Source of the DNA: Styela clava | Lineage: Eukaryota | Reading direction: 5' to 3' | Assembly: GCF_964204865.1 (NCBI RefSeq) | Contig: NC_135252.1 | Span: forward strand, 13,702,001 to 13,766,000 | Length of the DNA stretch: 64,000 nt | Shown: positions 25,703 through 59,220 of the stretch, piece by piece | How positions within the stretch are numbered: the stretch's first letter is position 1 | Layout of the letters: every line of letters starts with the position of its first letter | Program-made: the position numbers and the translations under genes | The notes under the pieces: model-generated | Databases searched by the model: none | The model's input: only the letters and a program-made list of their open reading frames with translations | Told to the model about the DNA's origin: nothing

Positions 25703-28700
25703 ATGGCAAGTAAAAGTACAACAAATTTAAGCAGTTTACATAGTGTTGGAGTTTTGTGCAATCTGGATGATCTAAGGAAACATGAAAACTTATGTGATGT
25801 CAGTTTGTGTGTCGGCGGATGTCAACTGTCTGCTCATAAAGTTGTTCTCTCAGCATGTTCACCATACTTCAAGGCTATGTTCACTCAGGTAATTTCTGAA
25901 GTGCTTGAAAAAACCTACTTCTAACATACCAATGGCAATGACTTTTTCAAAAATTTTATAGGTAGAATTTTACTCAAATTTTCGGACAGTATTTATTTTC
26001 ACTAAAATTTTTTTTTTGAATATTCCGTCTTTGAAATAAAGATATTGGACTGAAGCAATTTATATGCCCTGGTAAGTTAGTAACTTTAAGTGAAACTTCA
26101 TACAAGAATGGACCATTGGATGGACCCATGTTTAAAAAAAAATTATTGATCAACAAAATAATAAGATGAACTTCTATTTGGTTTCGGGGAATTATTTAGT
26201 AGCTTAAAATTAAATTTATTGTAAGAAGATGTTTTATGAATTTGGATGGTAAATTGATGTCGATTCAATTTTTGCAGATGAAATGTCAAGGGTGGCAAAG
26301 GTCATTGGAAGAAGAATTTTTGTCTATGATTTTTAAATATGTAATATTTTTTCGGGGGTTTTTAGTGACTGTCACAATGGCTTTTTAGCTTATCTATATT
26401 ACAATATTGGGGGCTCCCGAAATATGCGAACCAAGATGGCGGACATCGGAATGTAATATGTGTACTAGGTTAGGGTTAGGCCATAATTTTAGATATAAAT
26501 ACTACGGGAGGCTCTTGGCTACTCTTCGAACTGATAATAGGACTAAAATAAGGAAAATTGGAAAAAAATTATCGCCTAACCCTAACCTGTTACCCATGTT
26601 ATGTTCCGATGTCCGCCATCTTGGTTCGCATACTTCGGGAGCACCCAATATTGTTTATTTACATTTTGTTAATTGCACAGGACATGGCAGAAAAAAATCA
26701 ATCATACGTTACTTTTCACTGTGTAAATGTCGATGCAATGGAAATGATTATTGATTTTGCCTACACTGGCAAACTACAGGTATTAATATTAGTTTTATTT
26801 ATCGCACTTTTCAATCTGTATCTTTGAAATCACTTCTAGTATCAAAAAAATTTTTTTAAAACAAATTTATATATATATATATATCGTATTTTACGGACCA
26901 TACGGCGCATCATATCATAAGGCACACTGTCAATCAATTGCTCAGATTGAGTTTATATTCACGCATAAGGCGCATTAGGGTGTAAGACGCGACAGCTTTT
27001 AAAGCAATCATGCTACTGTTTTTTCAGTATATGCAATAAAGCACTACCTTATTAATACACTTCATGCACCTACCTGCTCATAGGGCGCACAATCAGTTTT
27101 TGAGAGAGAAAAAAAGACTTAAAATGCGACCCATGATGTGTGACATACAGTTTATATATATATATGAGGAAACATGTTCTTCTGAACACTTGCTCTTCTG
27201 AGCTGGAATTTCAGTGATTGTTCAGTAAATTTGCTCAGAGATAAGTCCTGTGGGGACTGATTGTGTGAATTTTGAGATCTGTCATTATTCATGGCAACAC
27301 ATTATCTTCTTCAATCTTGCTTCACTATTGCACCATCTTAAACAACTTCTAGGGATAAGTTTTTTATATTATATAAAATCAACACAACATTAGAATGTAC
27401 ATCCAAAAAATTAAATTATTAAACGTCATCGAGTTATTTTCGAATGATATCCAGATGATTTCTTATATATACGTACTATATAACTTTCTGGCAATGGGCT
27501 GAATCGCATCTACGAGTTTTAATTCACATAATCCTTTATTAGAGAGGATTAGTTGAATAGCTGTTCCTTACGAATATTGAATTGAATGGGGATTAGGCTT
27601 GTCTGAGGCTGTCAGATCAACACGATCAATATTAGAAATTGAATAAATACAATATTGATCATGAATAGAGATAATATAACTGAATAGCTACATACACTCG
27701 GTGTTCTGGTATTACCTTTTCTTCATAAATCATGGTGTTGTTAATGTTAAGGCAAAATTTTCAGATAAAAAAGGAAATCAAATTTGAAATGACACCTGAA
27801 AAGATTTATTGAAATGCATCTATTTCATTTAAAAAAATTCATGTATTGAATAACATCCTTGTATGAATATATATACCGTATATACCTTGGATAACTTATG
27901 ATTTGAATTTTTGTTTATTGTGAAATCATTTTGCAGGTGACAGCGTCCAATGTTCAGAGCCTTGTTCCTGCAGCTTGTTTATTTCAAATGCATCTTATTA
28001 TTGATGAATGTTGCCAGTTTTTGGAATCACAATTGCATGTCAACAATTGCATTGGAATATGGAGATTTGCTTATGATTATGGTTTAATTGAGTTGACTCA
28101 AGTATGTTCAAAATATAAAACTAATGAAATTGCTTATAGACGAGAATGTCCAGAATGAATAAAATACATCTGACATCTGAGTCTATCTGATATGAATTAT
28201 ACTCCATATTTGAAATTCTTGAATTTTGGAATTATATAATATATTTTCATTAGAGAAATTATCATTTTGAACAATTAAAGTCTCACACTATGATAAAAAA
28301 TGCCTCCATTTGGTTCTCAAAAAAAACATAAAACCAACAAATTCATTATCTTAACTTCTCCTGCATTCCTGAATTCAAACTCATATCCATTATTAAACAC
28401 GACCCAATTTAGAACATATGAGATATTTCGTATTCGAAAACATTAATTAGAAAGCATTTATGATAGTGAATTGTTTCATTTTGGCTATGGGTTAGTATCA
28501 ATTTTTCATCTTCTGTTTTTATTTTAGGTTTTGTTTAAATTCATCAATCAGAACTTTGAAGAAATATCAAAACTGGATGAAATACATGATCTTCCAGTTA
28601 AATATTTGATCAAAATTTTATCATCTGATGATTTGAATGTTTCTTCAGAAGAATCGGTGAGTCAATGGATGATTAATATAAGCTGAGCTGTAGAGTTGTG

Positions 28701-31700: not shown

Positions 31701-34700
31701 CACCTCACTTAATGCGAGGATCTGTACACTCAGCTACAAAAATCTTTAATAACCTCTTACACCAACATCATTGGAACCAACGCTGGGCATTCTTGACATA
31801 ATTTTTTGCTTGAGCACCTTGAGCTTTTCTTTTATCAACTTGTTCCAAAAATTTTATGATATTTGAGAGTGAGACATTCGGTATGTTTTTATTAGAGTCC
31901 GAGTCGAAATTCAAAGCGGATCAAGGTGATATCAAAGTCGAATTTTTCTGTAGAAATGCAAAATAAATTAAAAGGAGTAAGCGTTCCCGTCAGTCTATTA
32001 TGGAAAACTTTCATAACCCAATATGATTCCGAAATTTGATTATGTATTCAGTTTGGAAATCTACCTGCCAGCGAAAAATGAATGGAAATCAATGGCAGCC
32101 CTGCCTCAACCTCGATATGAATGTAGTGCTGTTGTTGCTGACAGAAAACTGTATGTCTTAGGTGGAATTGTCTGTGAACCATACAAGTAAGTTTTAAGAT
32201 TATATTTCATTTGCATTGTGTATGTGATATTATGTAAGAGTCCAAACACAAAGTGGCCGTAAGAAAACAGAATTTCTTAATTATTTCTACAAAAATGAAG
32301 AAAGTTTATTTAACACTTGAACTACTGTTTGTGTATAATTTCACAGAAAAAAATCCATTTGCTTTACATTCCCACTTGACTTATTTAACTCAGGGTAAGG
32401 TATTATCGGCCTAATATATTATATGGTATTGGCCGATTATATGCTTCATTAAGCGCAATCTCTCTCTCTAGACAACACTCAAACACAGTAGTAGTATGGG
32501 ATCCTGATAAAAACAATTGGATAAAATCAGTTGGGATGTTGAAAAGCAGAAGCAGTTTTGCAAGTGTTGTATTGAAAGGTTGGTAATATGGATGAAATTA
32601 TTTAACAGTTATGAAGGATGGCCAAAACTAAACCAAAACCTATTATTGCAAATACATTTCGATGGAGTATTTTTGAATATATGAATTATCAAATATATTC
32701 TAAATCAAGCCATGGTTAATTAAAAGAAAAATTTACACAAACTAGTAAATATTCTCAAAAAAGAGGGTCAAAAGAGTGCTTTCCCCATCAATTTTCATGA
32801 ATCAGCGTTCTCACACTGTGAATCTGAAATATCTCCTCTGGCCTTACTAGATTTATGTTAACGCATTTGTGTGTACATCACGAGCAAAAGCAATTACCGA
32901 TACCATCATGTGTAGTAACCCACTAAAACAAGGCACTTTGACGCATGCACCGGTGCACATTATTGGGGCATGAGGAAAAATGAGTGAAATAAAACCAATG
33001 AAAAATAGAGCGTACATTGGTGGTTAATTAACAAACAGAGAGGAGAAAGTTGCTCATTGGACTGTAACCCTTCCTTGTAGGGCTAAAAATTTGCCCAAAA
33101 TATATAATACCAATTTCAATTCAATATGTTTCGGACATCGCTGGCAACCAGTAGTCTATTTTTAGTTCCAAATGCTCATTAGTTGAATACCTGTATTAGT
33201 ATTAACAATATGCCTAGCACTGCACAATTGATTACACAATGCACTAGTTATGTAATGCATTAAGGTGCATGTGATTAATTATAAGTTGAAGCCTCCACTA
33301 TTGATCATCCGAAATTTTGAAGCCGGCTGGACATATTGGAAAGATCTTTTTCTATGACTGTCGTATTAGTGGCTTCTTGTCTCAAGGCTCAGTCATGAAG
33401 AAAGCTTGATTGAACATGTTATCAGATATCCCAATTTTTGTAATAATAATACTATCATTATTTAAAGGTGAAATCTATGTTCTCGGAGGATATGATGGGG
33501 AATCGTATCTCAAGCATGTGGAGAAGTTTTCTCCTAGGAAATCAACTTGGGAACGAGTAACCGACATGAAACAAACAAGGATTTGTTTTTCTGCCGCGGC
33601 ATTGCATGATTGTATTTATGCGATTGGAGGATATGGTCCTGCACACCAGGACAGGTTAGTTTGAATATCTACTTATTTGTTGTTTTCATCCCGATACAAG
33701 ATCCAGAGCTTGTCAGACTCAGGCCCTATTCCTATTCAAACTATGATCCTCTCGAAAAATGATCTTGAAACCTGATATTCTAACTCAATTCCTAATGATA
33801 TATTTCCTACTTCGCTTCAGTGTAGAGATGTACAACACAACAACAATGCATTGGCAGATGTTGAAACCGATGTTGAATAAAAGAATAAACTTTGGTGTCA
33901 CAGTATACCAAGATTCTATTTATGTTATGGGTGGACACAGTGGGACAGCTCATCTCAGGTCAATGGAAAAATATGACACAGAAAAAGAAGAGTGGGAATT
34001 ATGCAATTCAATGAGAAGGCCAAGAACAGGTTGGGTTGGATATTATTCTTTGTATCGTTCAAATAAATATTGGAGTGATTGGAATAATGCATGAAATAGT
34101 TATAGTTTGGCTGTTTTCATTGCCAGATTGAAATGATTAAAAAAATTGTTGTGGTTGTTTCAATAATGGTTTATGAGGATTGTATTATTTTCAATTAATT
34201 TATAATAATAGAAGGAGACTATATTTCAACATAATCAATTTGTTCCTATTTGACGCTTAATCAAGCCTTTCCGTTCAAACAAGATCCTGATATTGTAACG
34301 ATATGTAGGGGGCTAACTTTTTCATGAAAGGGGAAAAAATTCCACCACAAAAATAGACACTTTTACTTTGATATTTAGAATTAAATTACCATTCAGTAGG
34401 GAAAACAGCATCATTATTCATTGCTACTGCAATCAAAATTTAAGTATAGTGTCACAAATCAATTTAATTTATCAATAACTCTAGCAATTTTTAATAGGTT
34501 TGTGGTCCACCTAAAAATGTTTATGTGGCCCAGCCAGTGAACCATGGCCTATTGGTTGGGAACCCATGTGTTAGGCCATCGCACCCAATAGTAATCTTAG
34601 CAATGTCTCTCAATACTGAATGCACTATATATAAAATAAAACTCTATGCTAAATCAAAATATAAATACTCGTATTAAATGTAAAAATTCCAATTTTTAAA

Positions 34701-35092
34701 TCTCATTTCATCTCATACCTTCACTCTGGTCAGGACTGTGTACAAGCATACATAGATACTTCAAGAGCTCTACTATTTATGGGATGATTTGAATGTTTGT
34801 AGTCATTTTTTCTTTATAAACTAATGTGCAGTGTAATTGGGTAAATAACTTTGAGGTTTCAATTCTCTGTTTTATACTTTGTTTGTTTAATTGACAATAC
34901 TCAGTATAAAATACCATAATTATTTCAGGTATTGGTACCGCTGTAATAGATGGCAAATTCTATGTTGTCGGCGGACATTCGGGTCACGAATATCTTAACG
35001 ATGTAGAATGTTATGATCCGGGCGATAAAACATGGGAGAGATGTTCTGGGATGAATTCAGCTCGATGTGCTTTTGGTCTGGTGGCATTGTGA
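25703..35092 (+). CDS. KLHL28: Kelch-like protein 28 (BTB-BACK-6xKelch), about 555 aa, 11 exons
   Basis: Exons 25703-25888, 26681-26779, 27937-28101, 28528-28656, 29125-29310, 30399-30499, 32052-32186, 32472-32578, 33468-33654, 33821-34029, 34929-35092, all in phase. RPRCAPKLLCAVGGKNGLFA, GGYGPAH, KRINFGV and the final RCAFGLVAL match KLHL28 as recalled. Confidence 0.9.
26410..26645. mobile_element. Full-length hairpin MITE with TTAGGG and YY1-like motifs
   Basis: Long inverted arms (GGGGCTCCCGAAATATGCGAACCAAGATGGCGGAC...GGTTAGGGTTAGG / CCTAACCCTAACC...GTCCGCCATCTTGGTTCGCATACTTCGGGAGCACC); 8-bp TSD CAATATTG. Confidence 0.85.
26884..27150. mobile_element. pogo/Tigger-like MITE inserted in a (TA)n run
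   Basis: Starts TCGTATTTTACGGACCATACGGCGCA, has repeated TAAGGCGCA motifs and a degenerate right TIR, with TA repeats on both sides. Confidence 0.55.
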
Positions 35093-37941
35093 CATCATCA
35101 TGGCCTTAACAGTATTATTAGTCTCCAATGCTTACATGAGATATTCAGTTATCATTAATATTCAAGATGCAGTGCTTTAAGGCTATGTCTCTCTAAGAAT
35201 TTGAAGAGTGCCAATGGAGGACATGGAACTGAAATGCTAAGAACCTCTACGTAGTTTATTCCTTGAGACAAATATGTCAGGAAATATCGAGACTTGAAAC
35301 AATTCACGTCAGCACTAGTGAGGAAAAATTCATTTAAAAAAGCGAAGGTCTTAAGCGAAAAATATTAACATTCATAAAATTTCGATAACTAACAGAAACC
35401 CCTAGGCATGTATAGAACTCGCTCCGGACCTGGAGCCAGCATGTTGCATATATATTTTGAACAAGTACCTATATACTCTGTATTGATTACCTTTTCATTT
35501 TATTGGTTAATTGTTAATATGTATTCATTCTCTGTATGTTCATTGTAAAAAGAGATTATGTGAAATCTTAGTATTCACCAGGAATGTGGAGAATTCACTC
35601 TTGTATTGAGAGATTACTTGACGTCTAATGAATATTCATCGTGACTGTGAAGTCAGCATTTGCATGTTTATATTGACATTTTCAAACTCTCAAACTGGGA
35701 GCCAAAAGTAGAATTTAAATTTCTTTCAACTAGGAGTTGAAATGGATTCGTTTTCTAAATTTCCGAAAGTTTGGGAGTATGTTGTCGATCTTCCCCAGAC
35801 TTTGATATTCCCAGTCTTGGGCATTTAGTCGCATCACTCTAAGCAAGATGCTTGCTTAAGCCGTTACTACAGTATTCGAAGATGACATACCAATGCAGGA
35901 ATTCAATATTTTATCCCATATTTTTACATAAATGGATGTGTAAATCACTGGAGTTACAATATGAAAACAGATCAGTACAATATGCTATTGTAAATTTGTA
36001 CTTCATTAATTTGAACAAAAAATATTTTTCCATGTAATAAATCTCGCTGGGAACTTTGGCTGGGGAAAGCTAAATCCTTTTTATAAGTTCACTGGCGTTA
36101 TTTGGTCCATCTGTTCCAACTGACTAAATGTCCGATCTTTATTTTCAATAAAAAAATAAACACAAATCAGTAAGCTTTAATCTTTAGATGCATGTTTAAA
36201 ATTATTTTCCATCCCTATTACAACCATATCCAATTGTCAATAGTTCAGCGTCCATATTTGTACTTCTGTATATATATATATACTCATCACCTGTGTTCTT
36301 CAGACTTATTACTTTATATTTTGTTGCTGCAATATTTTTTTGAAATTTAAATAATGATATTGCCCAGATTATTGACTACCTAGTCGTACCATTTAAGTCT
36401 GCATATTTTGTGTAAAATAGACGTTTTTGGCGTGCTGACTTAAATGATATTTTTGCATTTCGAGTTTTGGGGACAGTTGCTGATGTAAATATATGAAATT
36501 ACTCTATGCATGAAATTATGCTCCTGTTATTATTTTAAAAACTCAGTGCGTATTATGAGATAATATTGCTTTTCCACTTATATACGTTTGATAGCTTAAT
36601 GTTTCATTCAACTGTGTAATAAATGCAAAATACTATATGTCTGGAGAATTATTATGACTGGCCTTGTATGTATTGGCATAAGGGTCTTATACCATCTGTG
36701 TTCCTCATTTTCGTTTCTCAAACAGCCAACAGAAACGCGCGCAATCGTTACAACTTGTTTATGATATAATTCCCAATTTGACATAATGTGTACCATATGC
36801 ACACGAAATTTGGAGGTTTACGTTGTCGAAAATAAGCGTTTTTTTATCTGTCGCGTGGATCCTAAAACAAAACTTAATTTTTCTTTTCGTTTTATTTGCA
36901 ATATTTTATAAAACTCTTTTCAGTATTAGTATTTACTCTCTTATTTTCAGTCGTAAGTTTGAGTTGCAGGTTCTTTTACAGTTGACGCACAGTGGCACAA
37001 GATGTGCAGCGAGATACCGTTATTGGCGACTTTTTCGGTTTTCCGAAAATTTTTAAGAGGGTGGGGGTGTTCAGCTGCTGATGAGGTGTAACATTTAGAG
37101 AATATTTATGTGAACGCGACTTAATTTTTTGCTCTTTTTCCACAACCATAAGTAATTATCTCTTTTTTGTCAGTTCAAATGATTCCTAATTTCTTTCGTA
37201 GTCAACTCCTACTAGGAATCACCGCTAACAAAACTTCGTGAGACAGTGCAGCGCTTATTTGTAATCAGCACTCTCGCAAAAATGAATCAAGTTTCGCGCC
37301 CTATTTGTTGCGCGATCTACAACACAACCTAAACGCGAGAAAGTGCATGAGCGATCGTTTTCGTTTGGCTTTGTAAAGGTACGCTCGATCTAGGTTATCA
37401 GGAAATTATGTGGCTAACAAGTTTCCTCTGTGTTTACAAGTATTAAGTAGTTTTGTCATTATACATCATTGGAACGATTACTTAAATTCGAGATCCCTCG
37501 TTCTACCAGGCCTTGTGTAGTAAACGTTTTGGTACGGGTAAATGAATACGGGGTTTATGAGAATTAGATAGTATTTTGAGGGGGAGTTTTAATGTACAAA
37601 GTTGAAGACGAAAGCGCAGAAAAACACAAACATTTATATAGTTTACATATATATATGTATGACCTATAACTCGGAGGTTATAGTATTGGAGTTGGAGTAA
37701 TAACTCATAAGGAAGTATTTAATTAAAATACTTATACCGGTAACCGCACGCGGTTAGGTGAATGCTCCGCTAAAATTATCCGCCATTGCTTATCGTGCGG
37801 TACTGTGGGGGTTCTTGCCTCACGAAGTTATTTCTAGGCTAAAAAAAATTCTCGTGAATTGTTGCTTAGTGTTTGCTATCAATTGAGTCTGTTTTCGGTA
37901 TTATTATTGGAAATTACGAACGTTCTTCCACTCGCCATCTT

Positions 37942-40900
37942 ATGAAAATGTCGACTGCAGTAATAGTAAGCGGGAGAAAAGTAGCTTTACTTCTAAAGTT
38001 ATATAGATTTTTTGCAGGTGAGAAAAAGCATTTTTCTATTATATCAAATTTGAGTATAATTAAACCAATAGATATAACCATTGTCATGGAATTTGGAGTC
38101 TGATTGGATTCTTTTACTTGTTTACAAATCTTTCCGCGTTTCTTGTTTTCTTTGTATGTTAGTAACTTGGAAAATGACGATTTTTTCTTTAGGTATTTCT
38201 CAAAAACAACTTGCAAGTGTCATGTGTGAAATGTTTGGCGAAAATATCAAAGTATCAACAATAAGTAAATTTGAACTTGGAACTGAGGTAATTTTATTAA
38301 CAGTAATAAATTTTAACAATGCTCACTACTTCGCGTATTTTTATGGCCCATCTGACGATATGACACGTGGTTTAGATATCTAGCTTCCACCAGAATGGCT
38401 CTTATTCTACCGGGTAATATCGTATTCTACCATTAACAAAGAGTAGTCTACTCACTGCTTGTGCTAGGCAGGTAGGCTAAATAACTAATATGCCACCGCA
38501 ATATTAATAGTATCCAGTCAAATGTTTTGGTCTTAATTAAAAAATTATACCAAATCTTATATTAATTTGTGTCGAATCCGAAAAAACAAATAATAAAGCC
38601 TTCTGGCTGAAACAATTTGTAAATCGAACATATCAACCTTATTCAATAATGTTTCAATTGTAGGCATGCATGCAAGATGTCAAAGATTTTTCATTGAAAG
38701 CAATGGTATGGCTGGAAATTATGGGAATAGATTGTCATTATCGCCTCGTTTCAGTCAATGACTGTGATAGCATAGATGGGATGAGAAAAAAAAGAAAGGT
38801 TGCAGAATTGCCTCCGCTCGAGAAAAGAGCTTTGGAAACACTTCGCAAAATGTGCTCGGGATTCACATTGGAGGTAAGCAGCTGTGCTGAATGTGCGTGA
38901 AACAAAGTATTATCAAAATCTTCAGAAAACCATAGGGGTACCCATCCGATTAAACTCTCCATGCAACATTCTCTCTCTTCACAACAAATCCTGTCTAAGT
39001 CGCAGAACAGTGATCCCCGCATGAGCTTGAAAGAAGTTTCACGACATACCTAGAAAATGTTATAGTTAAGCCTTGGTACGACGATTGAGTTTCTCAAGAT
39101 AAAATATAGAAGCCTATTATATTTCTTATAACAGCATCTTCAACTATTGGAAATAATATTTGGTGTTACACCAGAGGATCTACATAAATGGTCTATTCAA
39201 CTACGACGCAGACAGAAAAACTTCAATTCCATCAGAAAAAGAAAAAGGCCTCAGAATGTATGTGATTGTTTTGTTCAAAAGTTGCATTTATATAGATTTT
39301 TACCCAACATAGTTAAAGAAATGAAAAGCTTAAAATTTCATAGTTTATAGTTAAAACGTCACAAATATTCCCTCGAGGGAACGCTGTTCTACGTCAGATC
39401 CACGGCGATTATGGTGAACTAATTTTTAATGAGAAAAAGTAGAATACATATATATGTATTTTGGCAAATTGGACAGACATGAGTTTGATTTCAAATTCGA
39501 AACTCAAATTTTTATATTGATGATTTAAATTAGCTTATATCTAATCTGTTTCACTACTGCTTTTTCTGCAACCATTTTTTTCTAAAGCAGGTTTCTGAAA
39601 AGCAGTGCCGGAAAGATTTCCTTTCAATCACTGCGAAAAATCATACGGAAATTCCTGACAAACATGTTGACAGCTTAATTGTTTCAGAAGATTCTGGAAT
39701 TGAATCTGAAACGCCTGCTTCCCCAATCAAATACACGTATGTCGCTAGCTATCCATTGCGTTAATTTTATACCAGGTATTAAAGTGAACAAACTTTTGAA
39801 CACCTAGCTAGACAATATTTGCTTGTAGTATGTGAACTAAGATGGCGGACACCGGAACTTAGCATGTGTACCAGATTAGGGTTAGGCCATAATTTCAGGT
39901 ACAAATACTACGGGAGTCACTCGGCTAATCCCCGAACTCGTAATAGAACTAAAAAAAGGGAAATTGGAATCAAATTATGGCCTAACTCTAGTCTGGTACA
40001 CATACTACGTTCCGGTGTTCGCCATCTTGGTTCACATACTACGGAGGTACTAGATAGCGCACTATATGCTAAAGGATTTAATTAATCGAGCTTGAAAATT
40101 ACACGTGAGTTCGCATTTCCCCACAAGCAAAAGCATGATCTATCTCTGACTAATCGTTGTTTTAATTCTAGTAATGGGAAAACCTATGCACCCCTGCACC
40201 CAGTGACATCAGCAAAACGGAGAATAATTTACGAAGAAGCAATTGAAAACCACCGTATTTCGTATGAAATGCCCCAAACCGATACGGATGAGGATCAGTT
40301 TTCCTGTGCACTGCTTTAGGGAAGACATGAGATATTCTGTTCACAATATAGGCCTATCTATATAAACTATAATGAGGCACAAATTTTCTTACTTTTCACA
40401 AAAATAATAACACCGACACTTGCTTGAAATTCGGTTAATTTTTTACAGTTTTCTTTCATTTTGGTAACAAGTACAGCCACTCCACTTGCAAAATTTTATT
40501 TTTCTAAGAATATTCCGTTAACATAAAATAATTGCGTTCAAAATTTTCATGTCCATAATTATTTAAAATTTCCAATAACTTGGACAAGGCATTGGTTTCG
40601 TTTATTTCCACGAAGTGTATTCAAGCCTCAAATTCAAAAAAACTTCGCACAAGTATCCGTTCAAAGATAGGATATACTGAAGCCCAAAATAAAAATATTT
40701 TTATTTATTCAATGCCAAATGATACACACCGTTTAAGGCTTCGTCATGTCTCTCTATCAATACATTCTTAATAAATACCCCGCCACTCCAATATATGAAA
40801 CGATAATGGAATACTGTTTTCGAAATAGCACATGTGCATCTTTTACAGACAATCCCACGCTACCGATTTAATTGTCCTGGAAATTCATTATCGATCTTGT

Positions 40901-42141
40901 AAAATTGATTTCGTGTTCTTTCGGTTGCTGCTGCATGAGTACGTACGCGATAAGTACGAATTGCAATGTTTGTGATATTTAATTTATCAACAAGTCGCTT
41001 TTCTATTTATTTCGCATTTCTTTTTCGGGCATGCTATATTCACTCTTCGAATAAAGGAATTTTTTTTTAATATTTGTTGCTGGAGATCATAGTATTTGCA
41101 CTTTTTTACATAGACAATCGTGGGAAATTTGTTTATCCCGTTAGATAGTTAATCCCGTTAGATTAAATTTCCCAGAAGCTAACACGGTTTTATGCAAGCA
41201 GGGATTCGCCGCAAGGAGGATCTTGCAACGACTGTTCGCTTGAAGCCACGTTTCCAAGTCTGGGAGAAATTTATCCTCGAAGAGAAATTTTGTCGTTTTT
41301 GGGGGGTACTTTTACTTTGTATTTTCTGCAGTATCTAATATTCTTTATAATTTATATTAGCACACATTATAAACTACTTAAACTTTAAACAAAAAACGGG
41401 GATGCGACTTGCGCATAACACTAGCTTCATTCATTCCGAGGTATTCATTCTGGATACCTAGGATTCATTAAAAATCTAATAAATAAAGTAGTTTTTATTT
41501 ATAGTGAGACAGGAATAAAGAGTTTCTACTATGCAAAAGTAGGAATTTCGTGAAAAGGTTCGGAAGCACTGTCCCAAGGCTCCCATCACCATCCGAGAAT
41601 GCGTGTTATTTAGTCAACCCCGTTCAGACTTCCGATTTTCAAATTCGATCATATATCAATGCCAACCCTTAAATAAAAATATTCGGTTGATCGAACAGTA
41701 TGATCACAAATAAACCAAATATTTGGATAGTAGAATAACTGATATCCAAAACAACCCAACTTATAACAACACCGCCATAATACTCTATTGTACAAACAGC
41801 CTGCAAACATGTTGACCTTGAATATTTCCTATAAATAATACACGTTGAGTTATAATAAGCATTTACATTATAGTAAACACTTGTGGCAAACACTTCCAAT
41901 AATTTTCAACTTCAATAAAGGGAGACAACATATATCAGTTACGCAAGACGTAATACAAAAAGTGGGAAACGAACATCTGCCGCTCAGTGACGATAGTAAA
42001 GATATATATAATTTGTCAAACGGAAAGTTATTTTGCTCAAATCGAAATGATTCGGTCCAGAGAGTGACGAGTGAGAAGTTGGTCTCAACGATAAAACGCA
42101 CGGTACGATTTAGCTTACCCATATTTGGGAGATGCTACTGA
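37942..42141 (+). CDS. Highly divergent POU-domain (POU-specific + homeodomain) protein; about 384 aa, or about 265 aa if it ends at 40319
   Basis: Exons 37942-38017, 38193-38287, 38664-38873, 39135-39257, 39591-39736, 40172-40261 (or to the stop at 40319), then less certain 40849-40938, 41202-41305, 41921-42141; all phases are compatible. POU-specific-like VALLLKLYRFFAGISQKQLASVMCEMFGENIKVSTISKFE...KAMVWLE; homeodomain-like RKKRKVAELPPLEKRALE...LHKWSIQLRRRQK. The start codon is uncertain. Confidence 0.7.
39826..40050. mobile_element. Hairpin MITE (TTAGGG/YY1-motif family) in a POU-like intron
   Basis: GTAGTATGTGAACTAAGATGGCGGACACCGGAAC...TTAGGGTTAGG...GTTCCGGTGTTCGCCATCTTGGTTCACATACTAC; homologous to 26410-26645. 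Confidence 0.85.
41962..41979 (-). promoter_or_regulatory. Candidate PTF1 (Ptf1a/E-protein/RBPJ) bipartite site upstream of the colipase-like gene
   Basis: The minus strand reads CAGATG-ttcg-TTTCCCAC: an E-box, a 4-nt spacer and a TC-box, about 700 bp before the colipase-like ATG. Confidence 0.45.
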
Positions 42142-42673
42142 TATATATGCTTAAATGAAATACGATTAGGTAAAAGAAAAACCTGTTCCTATTCCACAGT
42201 TATAAAGTAAGTGAATTTCTAGCCCTCGTTCGCCTTTATGTACACTTATACACGTTATAACTCACATCAAATGGTAAATATTTGAGCTCGATTATATAAA
42301 ATAAGCACATTTTAATTCAGTTGACAGCTAGAGCAGTAACAAGTACGGAAGTACGCAGTCGTTTGCCACACCTGCACTGTTTTATTGAAATTTATCCCCG
42401 GGTGATTTCAAGTTTCAGTGGAGTTTAAGTCAAAACTTAAATATTCCACAGAATTACTACACGAATTTGAGTACAAAAAGATAATTTCTTTCATAAACTA
42501 GTTTCACTAAGAACGCGGAGTGAGTGATCGTAGCAGTACTTACTTTATATCATTTACATTGTGCATTTGAACTGCATTTCCATTCTAGCTAAATACCAAC
42601 CTAGTTGTAATTATTGCAGTTGTCATTTTTGTAACCTAATTGTAACTTTTCTGCCGCCATCTCTTGATCAAAA

Positions 42674-43670
42674 ATGTTTCTCAGAATTATATTGTTCTAC
42701 TGCTGTTTAGCATTGGTGACATGCTCAGTAGAGAAAAATTTAGTAATCAATTTAGTAAGTACTATTTATTTGTGCTAATTTGACGTATTTGTAACCCACC
42801 CGTGCAGGACGCGGTAATACTGCACCTGTTTTTCTAGGAAAACGGAGAAATATGTGCTTTTGGAAGTCAGTGTTTGAGTGGATGCTGCAAAAGGAACGGA
42901 GTCGTACTTCGATGTTCAAGTCTTAGCAAGGAAGGTGCTCAATGTACAAGAGACGTGAGTACCGGAATAGTTTAATCGATGTCTAGCAACAACAAAAATG
43001 GGTAGTCAGACCTGAAGATTTTATTGTCTCGGGTTTATATCGTTTTCTCGAACTTCACGCAAACAGCAGAAAAATTTTAAAACCCGGATTCGACTTGAAA
43101 TCCGGAAGGCGAAGCTGGTGATTCTGGCCCAATTTCAAGTACTCAGCATTGAAGTTTTTAGCTCGTTCCTAGATTTAAGAAAGTGACCTTTCAAACGTAT
43201 TTTTTGAACATCTGTTTACAAGTTGCATCTTTAATAAGATAATAGTAATGCATATATTTCTAAATATAATTGGGCTATCATTCAACAACGTACGTGACCA
43301 GTAATCAATCAGGATATATATAATCTCATTTGCTGATAGACTTCCTGCACGATTATCAACCTGCATGACCTGACTTCAATAAGAAAGTTCTTTTCTAAAG
43401 TTCCTCTTAAATCTGTACCAATTTCGAATTTATTTTATTTTTATTAGGTAGCCATTTGTAAGATTTGATGGGTAAAAAACAAATCAAGAAAGTAGCATTA
43501 ACTTTCTTGAGCACGCAGCGCTCACGTGACGGAATTTATAAATCGCAGAATAATCCATAAAAAAAATTATTTTGTAGGATATGTTGGACACCGAGGTTTT
43601 TCATTGCCATTGCGAGATGGGATTACAATGCGACAGACAAACAGACGTATGCGTGGACGGGAACGCATAA
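42674..43670 (+). CDS. CLPS: Colipase-like secreted protein, 96 aa, 3 exons
   Basis: Exons 42674-42754, 42838-42954, 43578-43670 (phase 0/0) give MFLRIILFYCCLALVTC-SVEKNLVINL|ENGEICAFGSQCLSGCCKRNGVVLRCSSLSKEGAQCTRD|DMLDTEVFHCHCEMGLQCDRQTDVCVDGNA*. Signal peptide, 10 mature cysteines in colipase spacing, and an INL|ENGE junction as in human colipase; AATAAA near 43781. Confidence 0.85.
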
Positions 43671-44193
43671 AATGACATCTCTGCAAATACTTATTCATAA
43701 AATTCAAATGATGGAATTTAATATTACATCGATTTGGTAAAATTCAAAAGATGCTATCAAGATTATAATAATTTTATATAAATAAAATAAATGGAATTTG
43801 ATATTGATGAAATTCTCTGTGACACCTTCAATAAATGTACTGAATACCTATTTCTTCCTCAATATTTCTTTGTGAGCAAATTAGCCGGTCAGTGATCTGT
43901 TAATTATGTATTTTTTATACAGCATTGAATTTGAAATGTTAAACATAACATGAAGAGTGAACTGTGCTCAATTACATATATAATATACACATTTCGAAAG
44001 GACTTATGTAAATTTTAGGAGTTCTTCTTATTCTAGAACGTCTTTGATGGTTTCTAAATTACAGTACAACCCAGTATTTAGAATATAAATATTTTTCATA
44101 AGGGTTTATTTGTCTGGGCATCTGATTTGATCCAATGTTTGTGCTTGATTTGGTTCCAAAGTAAATAACTTGTTCAATGTTAACTGGACAAGA

Positions 44194-45018
44194 CTATTCT
44201 TCAAATCCATCCACTCGTTTATTGTATAACTTTTCCATTTCTAAAGCAGCGTCTTTACTTTCCATCACATATGCATGACTTCCTTTGGAATGAATATACA
44301 TAGATTCTTTCAATGGAATGCCGGAAAAGAAGAAAAATCTTGCAGGCTTTTTGTCTTTGGTTTTATTTTCGAACTTGATAAAGTCTCCACCAGAGATATC
44401 ACCAGTATGTCTTGCTTTGATCGTAACCCCTCCGACTACGATAGTACCTTGCATTGTGTAAATGAAAGTGGTCCATGTTCTATCGATTGGCTGAGTATGC
44501 GAAGACCCCGAATTCAACGTGATATCTAACATTACTGTTGGCTGCTGCGTTTGTACTCTTGATTTCATTCCTAGTGAGTTTCCCATTAGCACTCTCACTG
44601 TTGCGCCCTCATTTTGTAAAGTAGGTGTTTGAGCCTTCCTAGAAACTTGAAAATCACACGGAGTTCTCTTTTTATCATGTGGTAAATTTACCCATAAATT
44701 AAGGCCGTTTGCAACCCCAACGGGCATTTCTCTGTGTATTATACCACCAGCTGCGCACATATTTTGAATTCCGTCGGGTCCCAGAACGTTTTTGTTTCCA
44801 GCGTTGTCACCGTGAAAGAGTTCGCCTTGAACAACAAAAGTAACGGATTCAAATCCGGTGTGAGGATGATTCGCAAAAACGGTAGGCGCTAGAAGATTAA
44901 AATGATCAAAAAATATAAACGGATCCTTTTGCACGAACTTTTGGTCGACCAAACCAAATCTCACGAATCTTTGCACTGCGTCATAAACTTTGGTGACCGT
45001 TGCAGCAACTTGATCCAT
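44194..45018 (-). CDS. PIR: Pirin-family bicupin protein, intronless, copy A
   Basis: DPFIFFDHF, HPH-x-GFESVT, GGIIHREMP, LWVNLP; metal ligands H-x-H and H-x-E are retained. Confidence 0.92.
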   Translation of the reverse strand: MDQVAATVTKVYDAVQRFVRFGLVDQKFVQKDPFIFFDHFNLLAPTVFANHPHTGFESVTFVVQGELFHGDNAGNKNVLGPDGIQNMCAAGGIIHREMPVGVANGLNLWVNLPHDKKRTPCDFQVSRKAQTPTLQNEGATVRVLMGNSLGMKSRVQTQQPTVMLDITLNSGSSHTQPIDRTWTTFIYTMQGTIVVGGVTIKARHTGDISGGDFIKFENKTKDKKPARFFFFSGIPLKESMYIHSKGSHAYVMESKDAALEMEKLYNKRVDGFEE

Positions 45019-47250
45019 TTTTAACTATTTATTGTCAATTGATTGGCTAAACGCGTGCTGGTAAAATAATCGACGCATAACAAATTTAGTAATGTCGGAG
45101 CTTCGTAATACGATACATGAATCCTGTACAGGTCTTGCAAAAATAGGAATCTGGGGCCGAGGAATCGGTATGCCTTGACTACAAGGCTTAAACTAAATTG
45201 TCGAGCCAAAAGTTGATTAAAGATGATTCAAAAGATGACCTGACCAAATCATCATTTCTAAGATTCATTACATACGGTTAGATTATTACTTGAACTATTT
45301 TACCCCATTTCCCAAAGTAACCCTCTATCTATTCTTTTTGTTCAAGATAAGTTATTTTTGCTCGTGCTTCAGTAAGCATCAACAGCTTGAAATCTCCTCT
45401 TACTCCATTGTTTTTGCACTTTTTATCCTAAACATAATCATAATTAAGCTCATTATAAGCAGACCCAGTTCTTTGTGAAAAATTATGATCAATATATATA
45501 ATATCTATTATAAACGAATCATTTGAAATATCAAAGTCGTACAGTTTTTTTTGTTTTTCAGGCAAAATTGAAACAATACTATTAAATACAAGTTGAGTAA
45601 TCGCACAATTGCAACGTAATTTTTTTATTGGATATTCCAAAAAAAGAAAAGGATTTCACGTCAAAGTAACTACATCATATCCAAAGCCAGTATAAACATG
45701 TAAATCGCTGTGTCTTTCACACTTCCTACACTAACTGAAACTGAACATATGAATAATCTTCATGCATCACCGTTGCGTATCAAACGGGAATGATTAGAAT
45801 GATTGAATTACATGCACATGATGATTGAAGGCTGACTTGAGCTCTTTTTGTTCAATAACTGAAGTGAGTAGAAACACTGCTGACTATAATCATCAAATGT
45901 ATGTTGCATGTAATATACAAATTAAGGCATGTTACTGAAAACTTACGGCACATATAAATTATGTTTTAATGATATATCATAGTCGTGACCTGATCGAACC
46001 GTGCTTCAAAATTTATGTGACAATAATGACACATATGAAATACCACGTGCCTTATTAATCATAGATCAATTGATATTATTGATCATCAATACATTATATA
46101 TTTTCTTTTGGACATAGATGAAAAAAATTAGTTGAGCAAACTCATAATACATGCCGACACACTTGTGACGCAACACGGGGCATGCCGAACTTTTCTGCAG
46201 CCCAGTGCCAGAAAACGATGCGCTTATACCTCACTTCAAAAATAATATGGGAATAAACAAATTGTAGATGTTGGTATACATGATCATGAATCAATGAAAA
46301 GACGAGTAAGAGTGGGATGTTTGTATTATTAAATAAATCATCAAACTAAGCAACAATTTCACATATCTAAAATCCAACTTATAACGCGAACTCTACAGCT
46401 TGGATCTGCTGCCGCCTTCAACGTTCTGCCCGGGGCGGCTCCCCTTATGGCCATCCCCTACGTCCGTTCCCTGGTGTAACAGACTTAACAACACTTAGTC
46501 TTCAAGTTCGAAAGAACCGTTTGTGACTTAAAACTTTGTCCTTTTTCGAGAAAATTCCCATACCGCCAACAATGAAGTATGATAATGCGCACTTGCTCAA
46601 TGTTGATATATATTTTCAAATCAATATCAAATGATTATTGGCGACTACCAGCAAGCTTTTTAAGAATTAGCTAACCCCATTCTTCGAAATAAAACAAAAA
46701 CAAGCATGTGCCAAGCAATACCATTTGTTGCTCACGTATATTATTATTGTATTATATATATGGACATGAATTGGACCTATGAATCGTTTTGTTATTATGT
46801 TGTTCTTGGTATGTTTCTTCTTATCGTTATGAAAAAACCGCTTTTATCTTTAACTACTGAACCAATTGCTTTGGAATTTTCAGTGGTTAAAGCTTGTATT
46901 TTCCTTTAGTTTAGAACTTTTTCGTGTTCATATAGTTGGTCATAACTCTCTTGTTAGTGATAATATAGCACATTTTACCTCATTTGCGATTGGTATATAT
47001 ATATATATACTTATTTGGCGTTAACAGAATTCCAATATTTTCAATGCATACAGTGTTACTTGTATATCGCGCGTTTTGCGTATTTTGGAACGTCCCGGTT
47101 GTTTCTAAATTACTAACAGTACAGCCCAGTGTTTAGAATATACATATTCATCATAAGGGTTTAATTTTCTGGACATCTGATTTGGTCCAATGTTTGTACT
47201 TGATTTGGTTTCCAAGTAAATAACTCGTTCAAAGTTAATTGGACAATGTC

Positions 47251-48075
47251 TTATTCTTCAAATCCATCCACTCGTTTATTGTATAACTTTTCCATTTCTA
47301 AAGCAGCGTCTTTACTTTCCATCACATATGCATGGTTACCTTTGGAATGAATATACATAGATTCTTTTAATGGAATGCCGGAAAAGAAGAAAAATCTGGC
47401 AGGCTTTTTATCTTCGGTTTCATTTTCGAACTTGATAAAGTCTCCACCAGAGATATCAGCAGTATGTCTTGTTTTGATCGTAACCGCTCCGACTACAATA
47501 GTACCTTGCATCGTGTAAATGAAAGTGGTCCATGTTCTATCGATTGGCTGAGTATGCGAAGACCCCGAATTCAACATGATATCTAACATTACTGTTGGCT
47601 GCTGCGTTTGTATTCTTGATCTCATTCCTAGTGAGTTTCCCATAAGCACTCTCACTGTTGCGCCCTCATTTTGTAAAGTAGGTATTTGAACCTTCCTAGA
47701 AACCTGAAAATCACATGGAATTCGTTTTTTATCATGTGGTAAGTTCACCCACAAATTAAGGCCGTTTGCAACCCCAATGGGTATTTCTCTGTGTATTATA
47801 CCACCTCCTGCGCACATATTTTGAATTCCGCCGGGTCCCAGAACGTTTTTGTTTCCAGCGTTGTCACCGTGGAAAAGTTCGCCTTGAACAACATAAGTGA
47901 CGGACTCAAATCCGCTGTGAGGATGATTCGCAAAAACGGTAGGTGCTGAAATATTAAAATGATCAAAATATATAAACGGATCCTTTTGCACAAACTTTTG
48001 GTCGACCAAACCAAATCTCACAAATCTTTGCACCGCGTCATGTAATTCGATGACCGTTGCAGAAACTTTTTCCAT
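47251..48075 (-). CDS. PIR: Pirin-family bicupin protein, intronless, copy B
   Basis: Same length (274 aa) and motifs as copy A, with scattered substitutions. Confidence 0.92.
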   Translation of the reverse strand: MEKVSATVIELHDAVQRFVRFGLVDQKFVQKDPFIYFDHFNISAPTVFANHPHSGFESVTYVVQGELFHGDNAGNKNVLGPGGIQNMCAGGGIIHREIPIGVANGLNLWVNLPHDKKRIPCDFQVSRKVQIPTLQNEGATVRVLMGNSLGMRSRIQTQQPTVMLDIMLNSGSSHTQPIDRTWTTFIYTMQGTIVVGAVTIKTRHTADISGGDFIKFENETEDKKPARFFFFSGIPLKESMYIHSKGNHAYVMESKDAALEMEKLYNKRVDGFEE

Positions 48076-48287
48076 TTTTATCTATTATTGTCGAACTATA
48101 GTTAGATTGGCGAATCGCATGCTGGTAAAATAATCGACACATAACAAATTTAGTAATGTCAGGGATTTGTAATACATGAAATAAATAGAGCGAAAAGTGA
48201 ATCATATGACAAGATAATGACAACATGATTGTGACATAACAGACTTACTAATACTAAGTCTTCAAGTACGAAAGAACAGGTTGTGAC

Positions 48288-54881: not shown

Positions 54882-57800
54882 CAGCGTTTCCCAACCTGTT
54901 TTGGTGTGTCTGTGTGGTATGGTAATATATGACACTTTAAACAATTTGAGTCTTTTGCGCCAGACAATTTAAAACAAAATTTTGTATATGGCTATAGTAC
55001 TCTCTTGGTAGATTTCACAAAATCAACAAGAGCAGGGAAAATGCTAGGGTCGCGTAAGATAGCTTTGAGTTGAAATTCAATGCCATAATCGCGACATTTC
55101 ATCTTTAGTAAGCGTCTTTCGTTTCTATATGCACGACAGTTCAATAGAAAATGTTCTACTGTCTCTGGATCATTACAGAAATCGCAAAGTCCATTATTAT
55201 AGCATCCTATTTTATGGAGGAGCCCATTTAAACGGCAATGTCCCGTCTGAAGTCGAAATAAAATTTTGTCCATTATTCGTGGTGACCAAGTGGAATTCTT
55301 GATGCTGTCTTCAATTGAGGGGAAAATTGTCTTGTAATGAAACGCTTGGTCACTGTGTATAAAATGTTGATCCCATTTATTTGCGCAAAATTGTCGAATT
55401 TGTGATTTGACTTTGTTTTGTGATTGGGATAATCTTTTGTCCACATCGACTTTCGCCGCTGATACCTTTGCTATTTTGTCGGCGACTTCGTTACCCGGAA
55501 TGCCAACATGTCCTGGAGCCCATAGTAGTGTGATTTTGCATCCTTGTTCCTGTAACTCAAAAAGACAAGTCTGAATATTTGAAGATATATTACTAATTTG
55601 ATCCGAGTTATTATTTATAGCAGACATACAATACGATATGATAAGTATATTCCCTTTATAGTTATTTTTTGACCATGTAAGGGCACTATATATTGCAAAA
55701 ACTTCGCAATCAAACGAGGAACAGTCTTTGTCTAGCCTAAAACCCATACGAGAATTATTATATGGAACATAAACCGCAGCACCGCATTTGTCATCAATTT
55801 TTGATCCATCGGTATAGATATGCACGTGTGATTGACATTCATATAATCCAAACTTATAGCTTTTGTTTGGTCGGGCGTATACCAAGGAAAAAGTATTTTC
55901 GATAATGCATCGTCAATATTAATTTCGTCCAAATACCATGGGGGAATTTCTTCGGCTTTAATAATACTAATATCCAATTTGTCAATATCGAAAGTCCTTG
56001 CAATCATACCAAATGTACGAAATGTTGGAGAGTTGGGAAATATTTCATGCCATGAGTGTTCGATGACTTCGTGACAAGGATGGTCAACAAATGTTAGCAG
56101 TTTAGCCTTATATAAGAGGCATAATTGTAGTCGTCGTACACTCAATGGCATCTCATTACAACAAACTTGTAAAGCAATTTTAGGCGTACTCATCATGCCA
56201 CCTGCAGCGATGCGTAGACATTGAGATTGGATAATTTCGATTTTTCTTATGGCATTCATTGATGCTGAAAAATAAGCTTCCATACCATATTCAATAATGG
56301 GTCGAACTAGGGATCTGTACAATGACAAAAGGGGTGATTTGTTAGCTCCCCAGCTAGTTCCAATAAGCAAACGCAGCAGATTAATCCGTTTACTACATTT
56401 TTGTACAACATATTCGATATGTCTCTTATAATTTAAGCGCCTATCGAAATAGACTCCGAGGTATCTTACTTCATTCCTGATTGGTAGTATTACACCGTTT
56501 ATGTGTAGTTGTATTGGTGGTAATTTTCTCTTTCGGGTGAATAGTACAACTATTGATTTTGTGACCGAGATCTTAAAACCCCATTGATTGCACCAGGACT
56601 GAATACAATCCAACGAGTTCTGAGAGGAAATGATTAAATCTTCAATTTTGAGCCCAATGTGCCATAGAGCGCTATCGTCTGCAAACAATCCAACATTATC
56701 TGATGAAATAGTACTAGGCATATATATCGTTTATCATTATATGGAGTGGACTGATTACGCTCCCTTGAGGAATTCCGTTTTCTAATGAGAATATACTTGA
56801 AAGACGACTGCCTACTCTAACCTGAAATGAACGATTCGTCAGAAAAGATGCAGTGGAAAGCCAAATTTTCCCGGTGACACCAATGTTATATAGTTTGTAT
56901 AACAGTCCTCTTTTCCATACCATGTCATAAGCTTTTTTCCTGTCTAAGATAATGCCAAGTACAGATCTTTTATTTGGTAAAGCTTTATATATGTCATCGT
57001 GTAATATTAGATATGCATCAGTTGTAGATCTCCACCTGAAACCGCTCTGTTCTCTACATAATATGCCATTTTATTCAACAAACCACTTCAGTCTGCGAAC
57101 TATAATTCTTTCCAAAACCTTACATAAATTGCTAGTTAAAGATATAGGCCTATATGAAGATGGTTGGTCTTTTTGTTTATTGGATTTAAGAATCGGAATT
57201 ACAACAGAGCGTTTCCAGGTATCTGGAATACTCCCTTTGTTCAAAATCAAATTGAACAATTTGAGTAATATGTCTTTACATTCTGCGGGCAATTTTATAA
57301 GCATCGCGTAGCAAATCTTGTCTAGTCATGGAGCAGTGCTTTTTCTTGGTTTTAAAACTTGATTAAGTTCTTTCATTGTGATATTTTTATCCAATTTGTG
57401 ATTAGCCTTGAAGATTGTTACGTCATGTGAGGATTCGAATGCGATCTTTTTTTGAATAAATTTTGCTACTGACCGCCGAGAACGAACTCGCCAGAAGCTC
57501 AGCTTTTCCGGAATCTTCGATTGCTGTTATACCATTGTGTTTAAGGCCGGGGATTTGTTCGTATACCTTGCTTTTAGTGAAGCGCCTAACCATTCTCCAT
57601 ACGTTGCTGAGTTTTTCATTCTTGTCCAGTGAGCTACAGTAATCATGCCAACTCTGCCTTTTAGCCTTTAATATTATTCTTCTTGCTTCAGATCTACGTT
57701 TTTTATACATTATCACATTTTCGATGGAGATCGACCTTTTCATTTTAAGGAACGCCGCTTTTCTTAGCCGTATGACTTTGTCGCAATCAAACCTTTTTTG

Positions 57801-59220
57801 GTCGCGGACTATTTTCTTACCGGCGAAAACCTTTGAGGACTGAAGGTGCGTTTATTGCAACCGTACTTTGTGTTAAGCAGCAATGAAACCAAACACAACA
57901 GAAAAACCAAACACAACGAATTTCAAAATCGGAAATTCGCCGCAATTACGCGTTCGTTAAAAGAGCCGACATTTTTGGTGTATAATGGATCTTTCTGTCG
58001 CACAGTATTCATTCCATGACAACGACGAGAATTTAAAATGTATTCCTATTTTAATTTAATTGTGTTCATCATGGTAACTCGCGGTTGCGTCGACTTACGA
58101 CAAGATGGAAGCATTACTTTTTTAAAATTCCACTGCAATCTTCGAACATAATAATGAGAGAATATATTGCCTGAATATATTTAGCTTTGATACATATTTT
58201 TTGCGATCTTGCGAATTCGTTATCGCTGTTAGAAAAAATCATACTATCTGCTATAAATTTCCAGAATGTACAACTTTATTTAGTATTTATCAAAAATATT
58301 TTTGAAGTATATATATTAGTAAATCAAGAATACCTATTCACCGCCTTGAAATTCTCGCGAACAATTTCTGAAGTAATCGTCGCGTATACGTCACTCGTTA
58401 AAAGAGCCGACTTTTCAATGATTTTTTCTGTTGCATAAAGCCATAAACTATTCAATCCATCCCCATGTGTAATTCTTTTAATCTGCGGTTGTGTTGACGA
58501 AATAAGAGCAATATCATGACAATCCGTGGCCACAAAAATGCGTGGTAAAGTGCCCGATTATATCTTGTCTTGACTCGTATTTTTGTGAATTCGACATTAC
58601 TACTGTGCGTACCAATCTGGAGGCAGTAAAGCAGAGAATCCTAAAGGAAAACGCCCTGGTACGTATACTACGGTAGCACCCGGAATTTTGCGATTTGCAA
58701 TGTCTAAAAAAGCGTTTTTAATCGGTCGTGAACCGCTTTTCATTTTAGAAAATTTGGGTTGCCCCCATTTACTCTTACCAGAAATTTTTTTTATTCCTCG
58801 TTGTTCGAACTCGCGAGAAACACCTATCTATCGAAGCGTGCAAATACTCTTGTTCTCGTCGGAGATCCACAAGTGAGTTGTGGAATCCAATCGTTTGATT
58901 AAGCGACTCGCAAGTGACCTGTCGCGTCACATGTTACCAAATTTTCGATTAGTAAATATGCTATTCTAATAGTTGAATATTCGAATATATGCCCAGCCCT
59001 ACTCAGTAACCAGTAATTATTGACGCGACTAATGTCATGTGAATAAACTGACTTTTCATGTTTTTTTTTGTAAATTCTAACGCAAATCCTAACTTGGCTG
59101 ATAGTTAATTAGGTTTCGCAAAAACGTTTGCGGCCCGCTGTGAATTTTTGACTCATTGCGGACTCATTTAAACGCTCTGCGGACTCATTTGAGACCGCGG
59201 ACTCGGGTTGGGAAACACTG
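54882..59220. mobile_element. Inner hAT-type element
   Basis: TIRs CAGCGTTTCCCAACC / GGTTGGGAAACACTG, GCGGAC subterminal repeats, TSD AATTAGAG / ATTTAGAG; the intact empty site is visible at about 60485. Confidence 0.85.
54906..57789 (-). mobile_element. 5'-truncated, frameshifted non-LTR retrotransposon (I/Nimb/Ingi-type: RT + RNase H + Cys/His finger)
   Basis: YRPISLTSNLCKVLER, GIPQGSVISP, FADDSA, RYLGVYFD, RNase H IYTDGS...WAPGHVGIPGNEVADKIAK, and C-x2-C...H-x4-C (CDFCNDPETVEHFLLNC); 13-bp TSD AACCTGTTTTGGT / AACCTTTTTTGGT; CA-rich 3' tail. Confidence 0.93.

Follow-up and report, generated by a model that had tools for sequence, protein, structure and literature searches.

Colipase is usually explained as an answer to the inhibition of pancreatic lipase by bile salts, and its best described forms are the vertebrate CLPS proteins (PF01114 plus PF02740; PDB 1LPA, 1ETH and 1PCN), for which a complex with human pancreatic lipase has been solved (1LPA/1LPB/1N8S). 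The hydrophobic finger tips of colipase contact lipid and its polar residues contact the lipase (PMC7094207; likewise in the available text of PMC6358717), its propeptide is reported to be cleaved from procolipase by trypsin, and it is reported to shield lipase from surface denaturation even without bile salts (both PMC3098174). Colipase is also recorded in cartilaginous fish (PMC4362833, PMC3466250), and the available part of PMC2263054 states that, as of 2007, no clear invertebrate correlates of bile salts had been described. In the ascidian Ciona robusta a gene labelled 'Colipase-like' (ENSCING00000000898) is reported to be stomach-enriched by RNA-seq and RT-qPCR, with expression higher than in the intestine, and serves as a stomach qPCR marker (PMC11277035). 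The first-pass annotation of the sequence studied here had set its candidate against the usual treatment of colipase as a vertebrate protein; the candidate does lie in an ascidian, but this is less surprising than it appeared, given that the Ciona gene was already published (PMC11277035). An ascidian colipase-like gene is thus not new, since both Ensembl and the literature already carry one under that name. The partner lipase and the shortened finger appear to be new: in the available text of the open literature on colipase and ascidians, Ciona, amphioxus or tunicates, no source makes a case for orthology, identifies a lipase partner or mentions a short finger.

The candidate was studied within a window of 64,000 nucleotides (the whole stretch of DNA that was analysed) and in the genome to which it belongs (376.8 Mb in 380 contigs), where a DNA search found the locus to be single-copy. 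All of its parts lie on the + strand. Coding exon 1 (42674..42754; 81 nt, ATG at 42674) was placed by homology and is followed by intron 1 (42755..42837; 83 nt, acceptor used in RNA-type contigs), exon 2 (42838..42954; 117 nt, both ends spliced in two RNA-type runs), intron 2 (42955..43577; 623 nt, joint present in runs X1 and X2) and the coding part of exon 3 (43578..43670; 93 nt including the stop). Exon 2 encodes Cys1 to Cys6 and the equivalents of colipase E15, R38, K44 and E45, and exon 3 encodes Cys7 to Cys10, the equivalents of E64 and D89 and a third finger of 6 residues. The 3' untranslated region (43671..43888; AATAAA at 43781 and 43830) abuts the 3' end of a convergent pirin gene, and an alternative upstream exon (~41936-42102) is spliced directly onto exon 2 via a 735-nt GT-AG intron (42103-42837). 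The colipase-type product has 96 aa and 13 cysteines, three in the hydrophobic N-terminal stretch and ten in the mature part, which is a single 79-aa domain. The three-exon splice, the ten colipase cysteines and the LVINL|ENGEIC junction had all been described in the first-pass annotation and were reproduced as given, with exact coordinates and with both introns being GT-AG and phase 0.

Exon 1 encodes a predicted signal peptide of ~17 aa (to ~42724, called from hydropathy), a short propeptide with a terminal Lys, and then LVINL. The Lys corresponds to colipase position 5, which we take to be the procolipase trypsin site and which is K or R in 11 of 15 vertebrate rows. Among 46 phase-0 donors in the 3 kb upstream, exon 1 ranked top at 58.5 bits (45.3 bits with no first exon), with the runners-up close behind at 53-56 bits; its donor is the consensus GTAAGT, and its ATG, hydrophobic core and phase are intact. 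The assignment of exon 1, and hence of the coding form, is based on homology. The reverse primer for the Ciona gene, as printed in the available text, encodes C-V-E-G-D-Q at codon 35 and matches the candidate, in which Cys1 is codon 33. The two ascidian genes would accordingly share the colipase label, a C-x-x-G-x-Q motif and a first cysteine near the same codon, and on these six primer-read residues the Ciona gene may be the counterpart of the candidate.

The surroundings of the gene were also inspected. Two uninterrupted pirin frames of 276 aa each (44194-45024 and 47251-48081, both on the - strand) are 93% identical in DNA; the first converges on the colipase gene tail to tail, and both 3' ends are spanned by one RNA-type contig. 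Other neighbouring genes (window 285-5635, 11483-11848, 21453-23504, 33747-35089 and 37870-40316) include a FERM-domain gene and a histidine-phosphatase gene (PGAM5-like; Pfam), the others, judged by eye, comprising an acetylcholine-receptor-type exon, a kelch-repeat gene and a + strand gene just upstream of colipase. The neighbours seen (pirin, PGAM-type, FERM and kelch) presumably differ from those of vertebrate CLPS. Non-LTR retrotransposon-like fragments (reverse transcriptase, RNase H) were seen by eye at 54992-57851 on the - strand, and a dispersed repeat at 26389-26754 and 39783-40085, whose translation recurs at many loci in the genome, is likely a small mobile element. Elsewhere, on contig C9 (~16,176,000-16,181,000), a cellulose synthase region (QxxRW, TED) is followed by a GH6 domain, a combination that is a tunicate hallmark; this gene ruled out a vertebrate source for the DNA and agreed with the claim of an invertebrate chordate.

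Judged from the aligned residues, the lipase-binding face of the candidate is kept and its lipid-binding face is cut down. All five polar residues that face the lipase are retained: E15, R38, E45 and E64, which are invariant in 16 of 16 vertebrate rows, and D89, which is found in 15 of 16 and which we assume to be a lipase contact. At two further positions the candidate differs, with L16 replaced by I and R65 by M, although R65 itself occurs in just 2 of 16 vertebrate rows. On the lipid side 6 residues separate Cys9 from Cys10; of 17 complete vertebrate rows, 16 have 17 residues in this loop and one has 14. Y58/Y59, invariant in 16 of 16 vertebrate rows, are V/F. The three loops together hold 8 hydrophobic residues in the candidate versus 12-14 in vertebrate colipases, and finger 2 has a net charge of -3 versus -1 to +3. 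On finger limits that we carried over from vertebrate colipase, including the 70-86 hairpin, the candidate thus lacks the set of three hydrophobic-tipped fingers (Tyr loop and 70-86 hairpin) that is a feature of colipase. An AlphaFold2 model of tuatara colipase made for finger mapping was poor (pLDDT 60, pTM 0.43) and was set aside.

A candidate lipase–colipase system had been proposed at first pass, and the genome does encode a full-lid lipase of pancreatic type. Lipase-family searches gave 22 matches in six places, and one gene on contig C2 (~11,242,000-11,250,300; public model P0019, 402 aa) was alone among the genome's lipases in having, by eye, a lid that resembles pancreatic lipase in length and sequence. 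The exon for this lid scored 68-69 bits on human pancreatic lipase and dog PLRP1 versus 22 on lipoprotein lipase, and the whole protein 320-327 versus 172. The lid is 23 residues long in the C2 lipase and in two relatives (73% and 61% identity), and these three ascidian-type lipases all retain the full lid, N241 and K400. Table 2 of PMC7094207 gives eight lipase contacts, which we compared using the alignments to dog PLRP1 and human pancreatic lipase for the C-terminal positions: N241, S244, Q369 and K400 are identical (4/8), V247I and I402L are conservative changes (2/8), and D248G and Y404E are losses (2/8). The C2 enzyme therefore resembles the lipase of the solved human complex in its 23-residue lid, catalytic motifs and four identical contacts, and differs from it at D248 and Y404. 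A poor response of shark and seabream lipases to colipase has been linked to loss of Tyr404 (PMC7094207), and on that basis Y404E speaks against the classical mechanism. The colipase partner of Y404 is R65, the residue found in so few vertebrate colipases.

Several observations were made on the lipase genes themselves. P0019 carries the label 'inactive pancreatic lipase-related protein 1-like', yet its GHSLG and GLDPAGP motifs and catalytic His are intact; Ala/Pro after the catalytic Asp is a mark of active lipases, and from its motifs the label is likely wrong. A further coding exon lies upstream of the P0019 model in the genome. The C2 lipase has a close paralogue on contig C3 (~24,720,000-24,728,700), in which the lid is shorter and the K400 place has no Lys, and which is therefore likely a colipase-independent sister enzyme. 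On contig C8 (22,881,000-22,908,000) two near-identical short-lid lipase genes lie ~23 kb apart, representing either a tandem duplication or an assembly duplicate, and a glutathione-transferase-like exon follows the first of them. A PDB search with the lipase's first C-terminal-domain exon alone was uninformative.

Prediction of a complex between the candidate, entered as exons 2 and 3 in separate chains and with no alignments, and the C2 lipase gave a score of 0.55, versus 0.00 for the best of three controls, with the runs agreeing in at least 94% of contacts and the partner pLDDT being at least 78. In the benchmark 51 of 78 solved pairs attained the mark, as did 2 of 108 mismatched pairs; passing scores of 0.60 or below, however, came from only 5 of the 78 solved pairs and from all 4 mismatches that passed. 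Since a solved lipase–colipase complex exists, the pass may reflect likeness more than binding, and the model lends weak backing to an interaction that, unlike in the human complex, is here predicted.

Taken with a probability of roughly 0.6, our preferred reading is that the gene is a colipase orthologue whose predicted secreted product binds the C2 pancreatic-type lipase as a cofactor and aids gut fat digestion. By analogy with Ciona, a gut form using exon 1 would be secreted from stomach cells with digestive enzymes, and trypsin may clip the propeptide after the position-5 Lys. The product would then dock on the lipase's C-terminal domain via E45-K400 and E64-Q369, and would hold the lid open via E15-N241 and R38. 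Its grip on lipid would be weak, given the near-missing third finger and the replaced Tyr-Tyr pair, and the product would probably serve more to open the lid and shield the lipase at the interface than to rescue the enzyme from bile-salt micelles. Anchoring of lipase on bile-salt-coated lipid had been suggested for this gene; the lipase-facing residues are kept, but the bile-salt mechanism is not simply transferable, since the loops that face lipid are shortened and no bile salts have been described in invertebrates. Each element of this scheme (secretion, tissue, cleavage, binding, activation) is an inference.

The alternative that survives best, although we regard it as unlikely, is that the gene is an orthologue by descent that has lost its cofactor role, the lipid side having decayed and the lipase working alone as in some fishes. 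The near-absence of the third finger and the replaced Tyr pair would fit such a loss, as would a C2 lipase that has neither D248 nor Y404; there is precedent in that colipase reactivates smooth-hound lipase poorly (PMC7094207) and that clps is reported missing in four teleosts (PMC9386070). Decay of this kind is harder to reconcile with the retention of all five polar lipase contacts in an intact frame, and with the three ascidian-type lipases that keep the full lid, N241 and K400. A weak hint in the same direction is that run X2 differs from the window at 0 of 210 coding nt versus 4 of 218 nt of the 3' UTR (p=0.07).

Whether the gene is colipase at all bears on a further alternative, namely that it is a relative that shares the fold but has a different function, for example inhibiting proteases in the gut, as the spider MIT-like protein NcTI does, or acting as a signal of prokineticin/astakine type. 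We consider this improbable. In support of the colipase assignment, the spliced protein scored 58.4 bits (55.5 bits for the mature protein) on a profile made from 16 vertebrate colipase sequences, while 1000 shuffles with all Cys and the first 20 residues fixed gave a mean of 1.4, an SD of 5.3 and a maximum of 20.7 bits; identity with the same 16 proteins is 30-39%. Two Dickkopf-type genes elsewhere in the genome (C14 and C2) have domains scoring only 8.8 and 13.2 bits on this profile. Reciprocal similarity searches gave the same answer in both directions, with exon 2 finding one match at E<=0.001 among 1,835,955,588 representative proteins (P0001, a colipase by Pfam; E 4.8e-8, 53% identity) and opossum colipase returning the candidate locus alone from the genome (E 0.013). 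P0001 has 281 aa and two complete tandem colipase domains, and is 81% identical to lungfish colipase. Against the PDB, pig colipases were the top three of 14 matches to exon 2, the best at 20.8 bits, with DKK1 at 17.0.

Cysteine spacing in the candidate is 5,3,0,8,9,12,1,5,6, versus 5,3,0,10,9,11,1,5,17 in vertebrate colipase, so that C4-C5 is 8 rather than 10, as in DKK1/2/4, and C6-C7 is 12 rather than 11. The C2-C3 spacing of 3 is shared with 18 of 18 colipase rows, whereas it is 4 in the animal's own DKK domains and in a Xenoturbella prokineticin (available part of the PMC11521371 supplement). All of these families, including astakine and the MIT-like peptides, share the ten-cysteine fold, and Dickkopf also shares E-G-x-x-C at position 45; the C-x5-C-x4-CC unit of Dickkopf, however, is the second domain of a two-domain protein, and the candidate has one domain. 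It lacks the features of the prokineticin/astakine family (C2-C3 spacing 4, a long C6-C7 loop and a PF06607 match, of which the locus has none), and presumably the AVIT start of the prokineticin type as well. Of the five lipase-contact residues put forward at first pass, all are present, but E45 and E64 are not diagnostic of colipase because they occur in Dickkopf domains too. From the alignments, the telling features are E15, R38, the N-L-[DE]-N-G-E start, the C2-C3 spacing of 3 and the basic position 5.

Intron positions point to the same family. A coelacanth colipase model ceases to resemble the other colipases exactly 3 residues past Cys6, at the place of the candidate's intron 2, and two colipase models with a wrong first exon rejoin the family at [DE]-N-G-E, at the place of intron 1. 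Human CLPS has three exons with phase-0 introns at these places, and the claimed intron match agrees, indirectly, with three faulty vertebrate gene models and with the human gene. In sum, the candidate is like vertebrate CLPS in its ten-cysteine frame, its three phase-0 exons and its conserved start and contact residues, in a sea squirt host. Ascidians have no pancreas, and no bile salts have been described for this host.

Pfam scans were made exon by exon and gave 18.4 of the 27 bits needed for PF01114 and 16.7 of 23.7 bits for PF02740; both profiles cross exon borders, and these scores are thus for single exons and not for the spliced protein. Exon 3 alone scored best on MIT_LIKE_ACTX (PF17556; 21.7 of 27.5 bits versus 16.7 for Colipase_C), and its only PDB match was a spider peptide (E 0.11), but exon 2 had no PF17556 match. 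A maximum-likelihood tree that omitted P0001, P0015, P0016 and P0018 gave no supported branch for the gene, its outgroups being two DKK sequences, both saturated. In genome scans at E<=10, PF01114 gave 17 matches and PF02740 7, none above cut-off. Re-scoring of 3666 segments on the colipase profile, including the prokineticin and DKK loci and covering 26 of 28 matched loci (two PF01114 matches being without a locus), placed the candidate locus at 30.9 and 15.1 bits with the next at 14.4, and no colipase paralogue stood out in the genome. Matches in the ESM Atlas were small spider-type cysteine peptides and were discarded, all having scores below 0.9.

The fold-relative alternative draws on the spider-like character of exon 3, the short last loop, the Dickkopf-like E-G after position 45 and C4-C5 spacing, and the lack of any prokineticin (PF06607) match above cut-off elsewhere in the genome; in addition, a spider gut protein with the colipase fold is reported to inhibit trypsin, and atracotoxins are reported not to function as colipases (both in the available text of PMC9918498). 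Set against these are the single best and reverse best matches to colipase, the mature score of 55.5 versus 8.8-13.2 bits, and the combination of C2-C3 spacing, N-L-[DE]-N-G-E, R38, intron places and position-5 Lys. Search, spacing, intron and profile evidence together favour the view of the first-pass annotation that this is a true orthologue and not a Dickkopf or prokineticin relative, and we conclude that the gene is very probably a colipase orthologue.

Contigs of four runs were aligned to the locus: X1, X2 and X10, which are RNA by guess, and X5, which is DNA-type (four runs guessed as RNA contain 14-22% of words); their tissues are not on record. Intron 2 is precisely spliced out in X1 and X2 contigs and is retained in X5, and intron 2 and the intron-1 acceptor are in use in two of three RNA-type runs, run X10 having no contig over the gene and being silent on expression. 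No exon 1-exon 2 joint was found in the X1 and X2 contigs, both of which connect the upstream exon (donor 42103) to exon 2; contigs lose minor forms, however, and the skipping of exon 1 in 2 of 2 spliced runs is no proof of absence. The upstream-exon transcript has no in-frame ATG before exon 3 and is therefore predicted not to encode a secreted colipase; it is probably non-coding and driven by a second promoter. Its upstream exon has a sole ATG (42047; out of frame, 6 codons) that is altered in X1, X2 and X5. As RNA-type contigs read past the exon 3 stop with no other joint, no fourth exon provides the missing part of the third finger. One low-depth X1 contig (window 42642-42797) runs from exon 1 into intron 1 and then into 92 letters absent from the window, and may represent an allele with an insertion or else a chimeric contig. 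No canonical PTF1 site (E-box plus TC-box) was found upstream of the gene, where an isolated CACCTG lies at 42369. A protein search by word index, with exon 2 and its next six read-through codons as the query (80-2000 aa), returned no candidate, which by itself is weak evidence; exon 2 also had no self match among the representative proteins, although this genome's lipase is present in the collections, and together these results suggest that the protein is missing from public annotation.

That the coding form is no longer made, with the locus being read only as a non-coding upstream-exon transcript overlapping the pirin 3' end, would fit the exon-1-skipping form being the only one seen, the protein being absent from those collections and the lack of a canonical PTF1 site, but we regard it as highly improbable, given that exon 1 keeps its ATG, hydrophobic core, position-5 Lys, GTAAGT donor and phase, that absence cannot be read from contigs of runs whose tissues are not on record, and that the Ciona counterpart is reported to be strongly stomach-enriched.

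With the gene read as a colipase orthologue that serves a lipase, the lipase–colipase partnership likely predates vertebrates, the pancreas and bile. A more specific history, which we put forward only tentatively and hold to be doubtful, is that the sea squirt keeps an early two-finger clamp and that the third finger and the tyrosine pair were later vertebrate additions for handling bile-salt micelles; we hold back because the last loops of outgroups range from short to long (16 residues in the animal's own DKK, 10 in the Xenoturbella prokineticin as given in the available part of the PMC11521371 supplement) and because the comparison includes no other tunicate or amphioxus sequence. The shortened finger nevertheless bears on how the colipase cofactor began, and the gene supports the view of an ascidian stomach with a pancreas-like enzyme set. 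With a tunicate colipase and a matching lipase in hand, the question of what colipase did before bile becomes testable with two small recombinant proteins.
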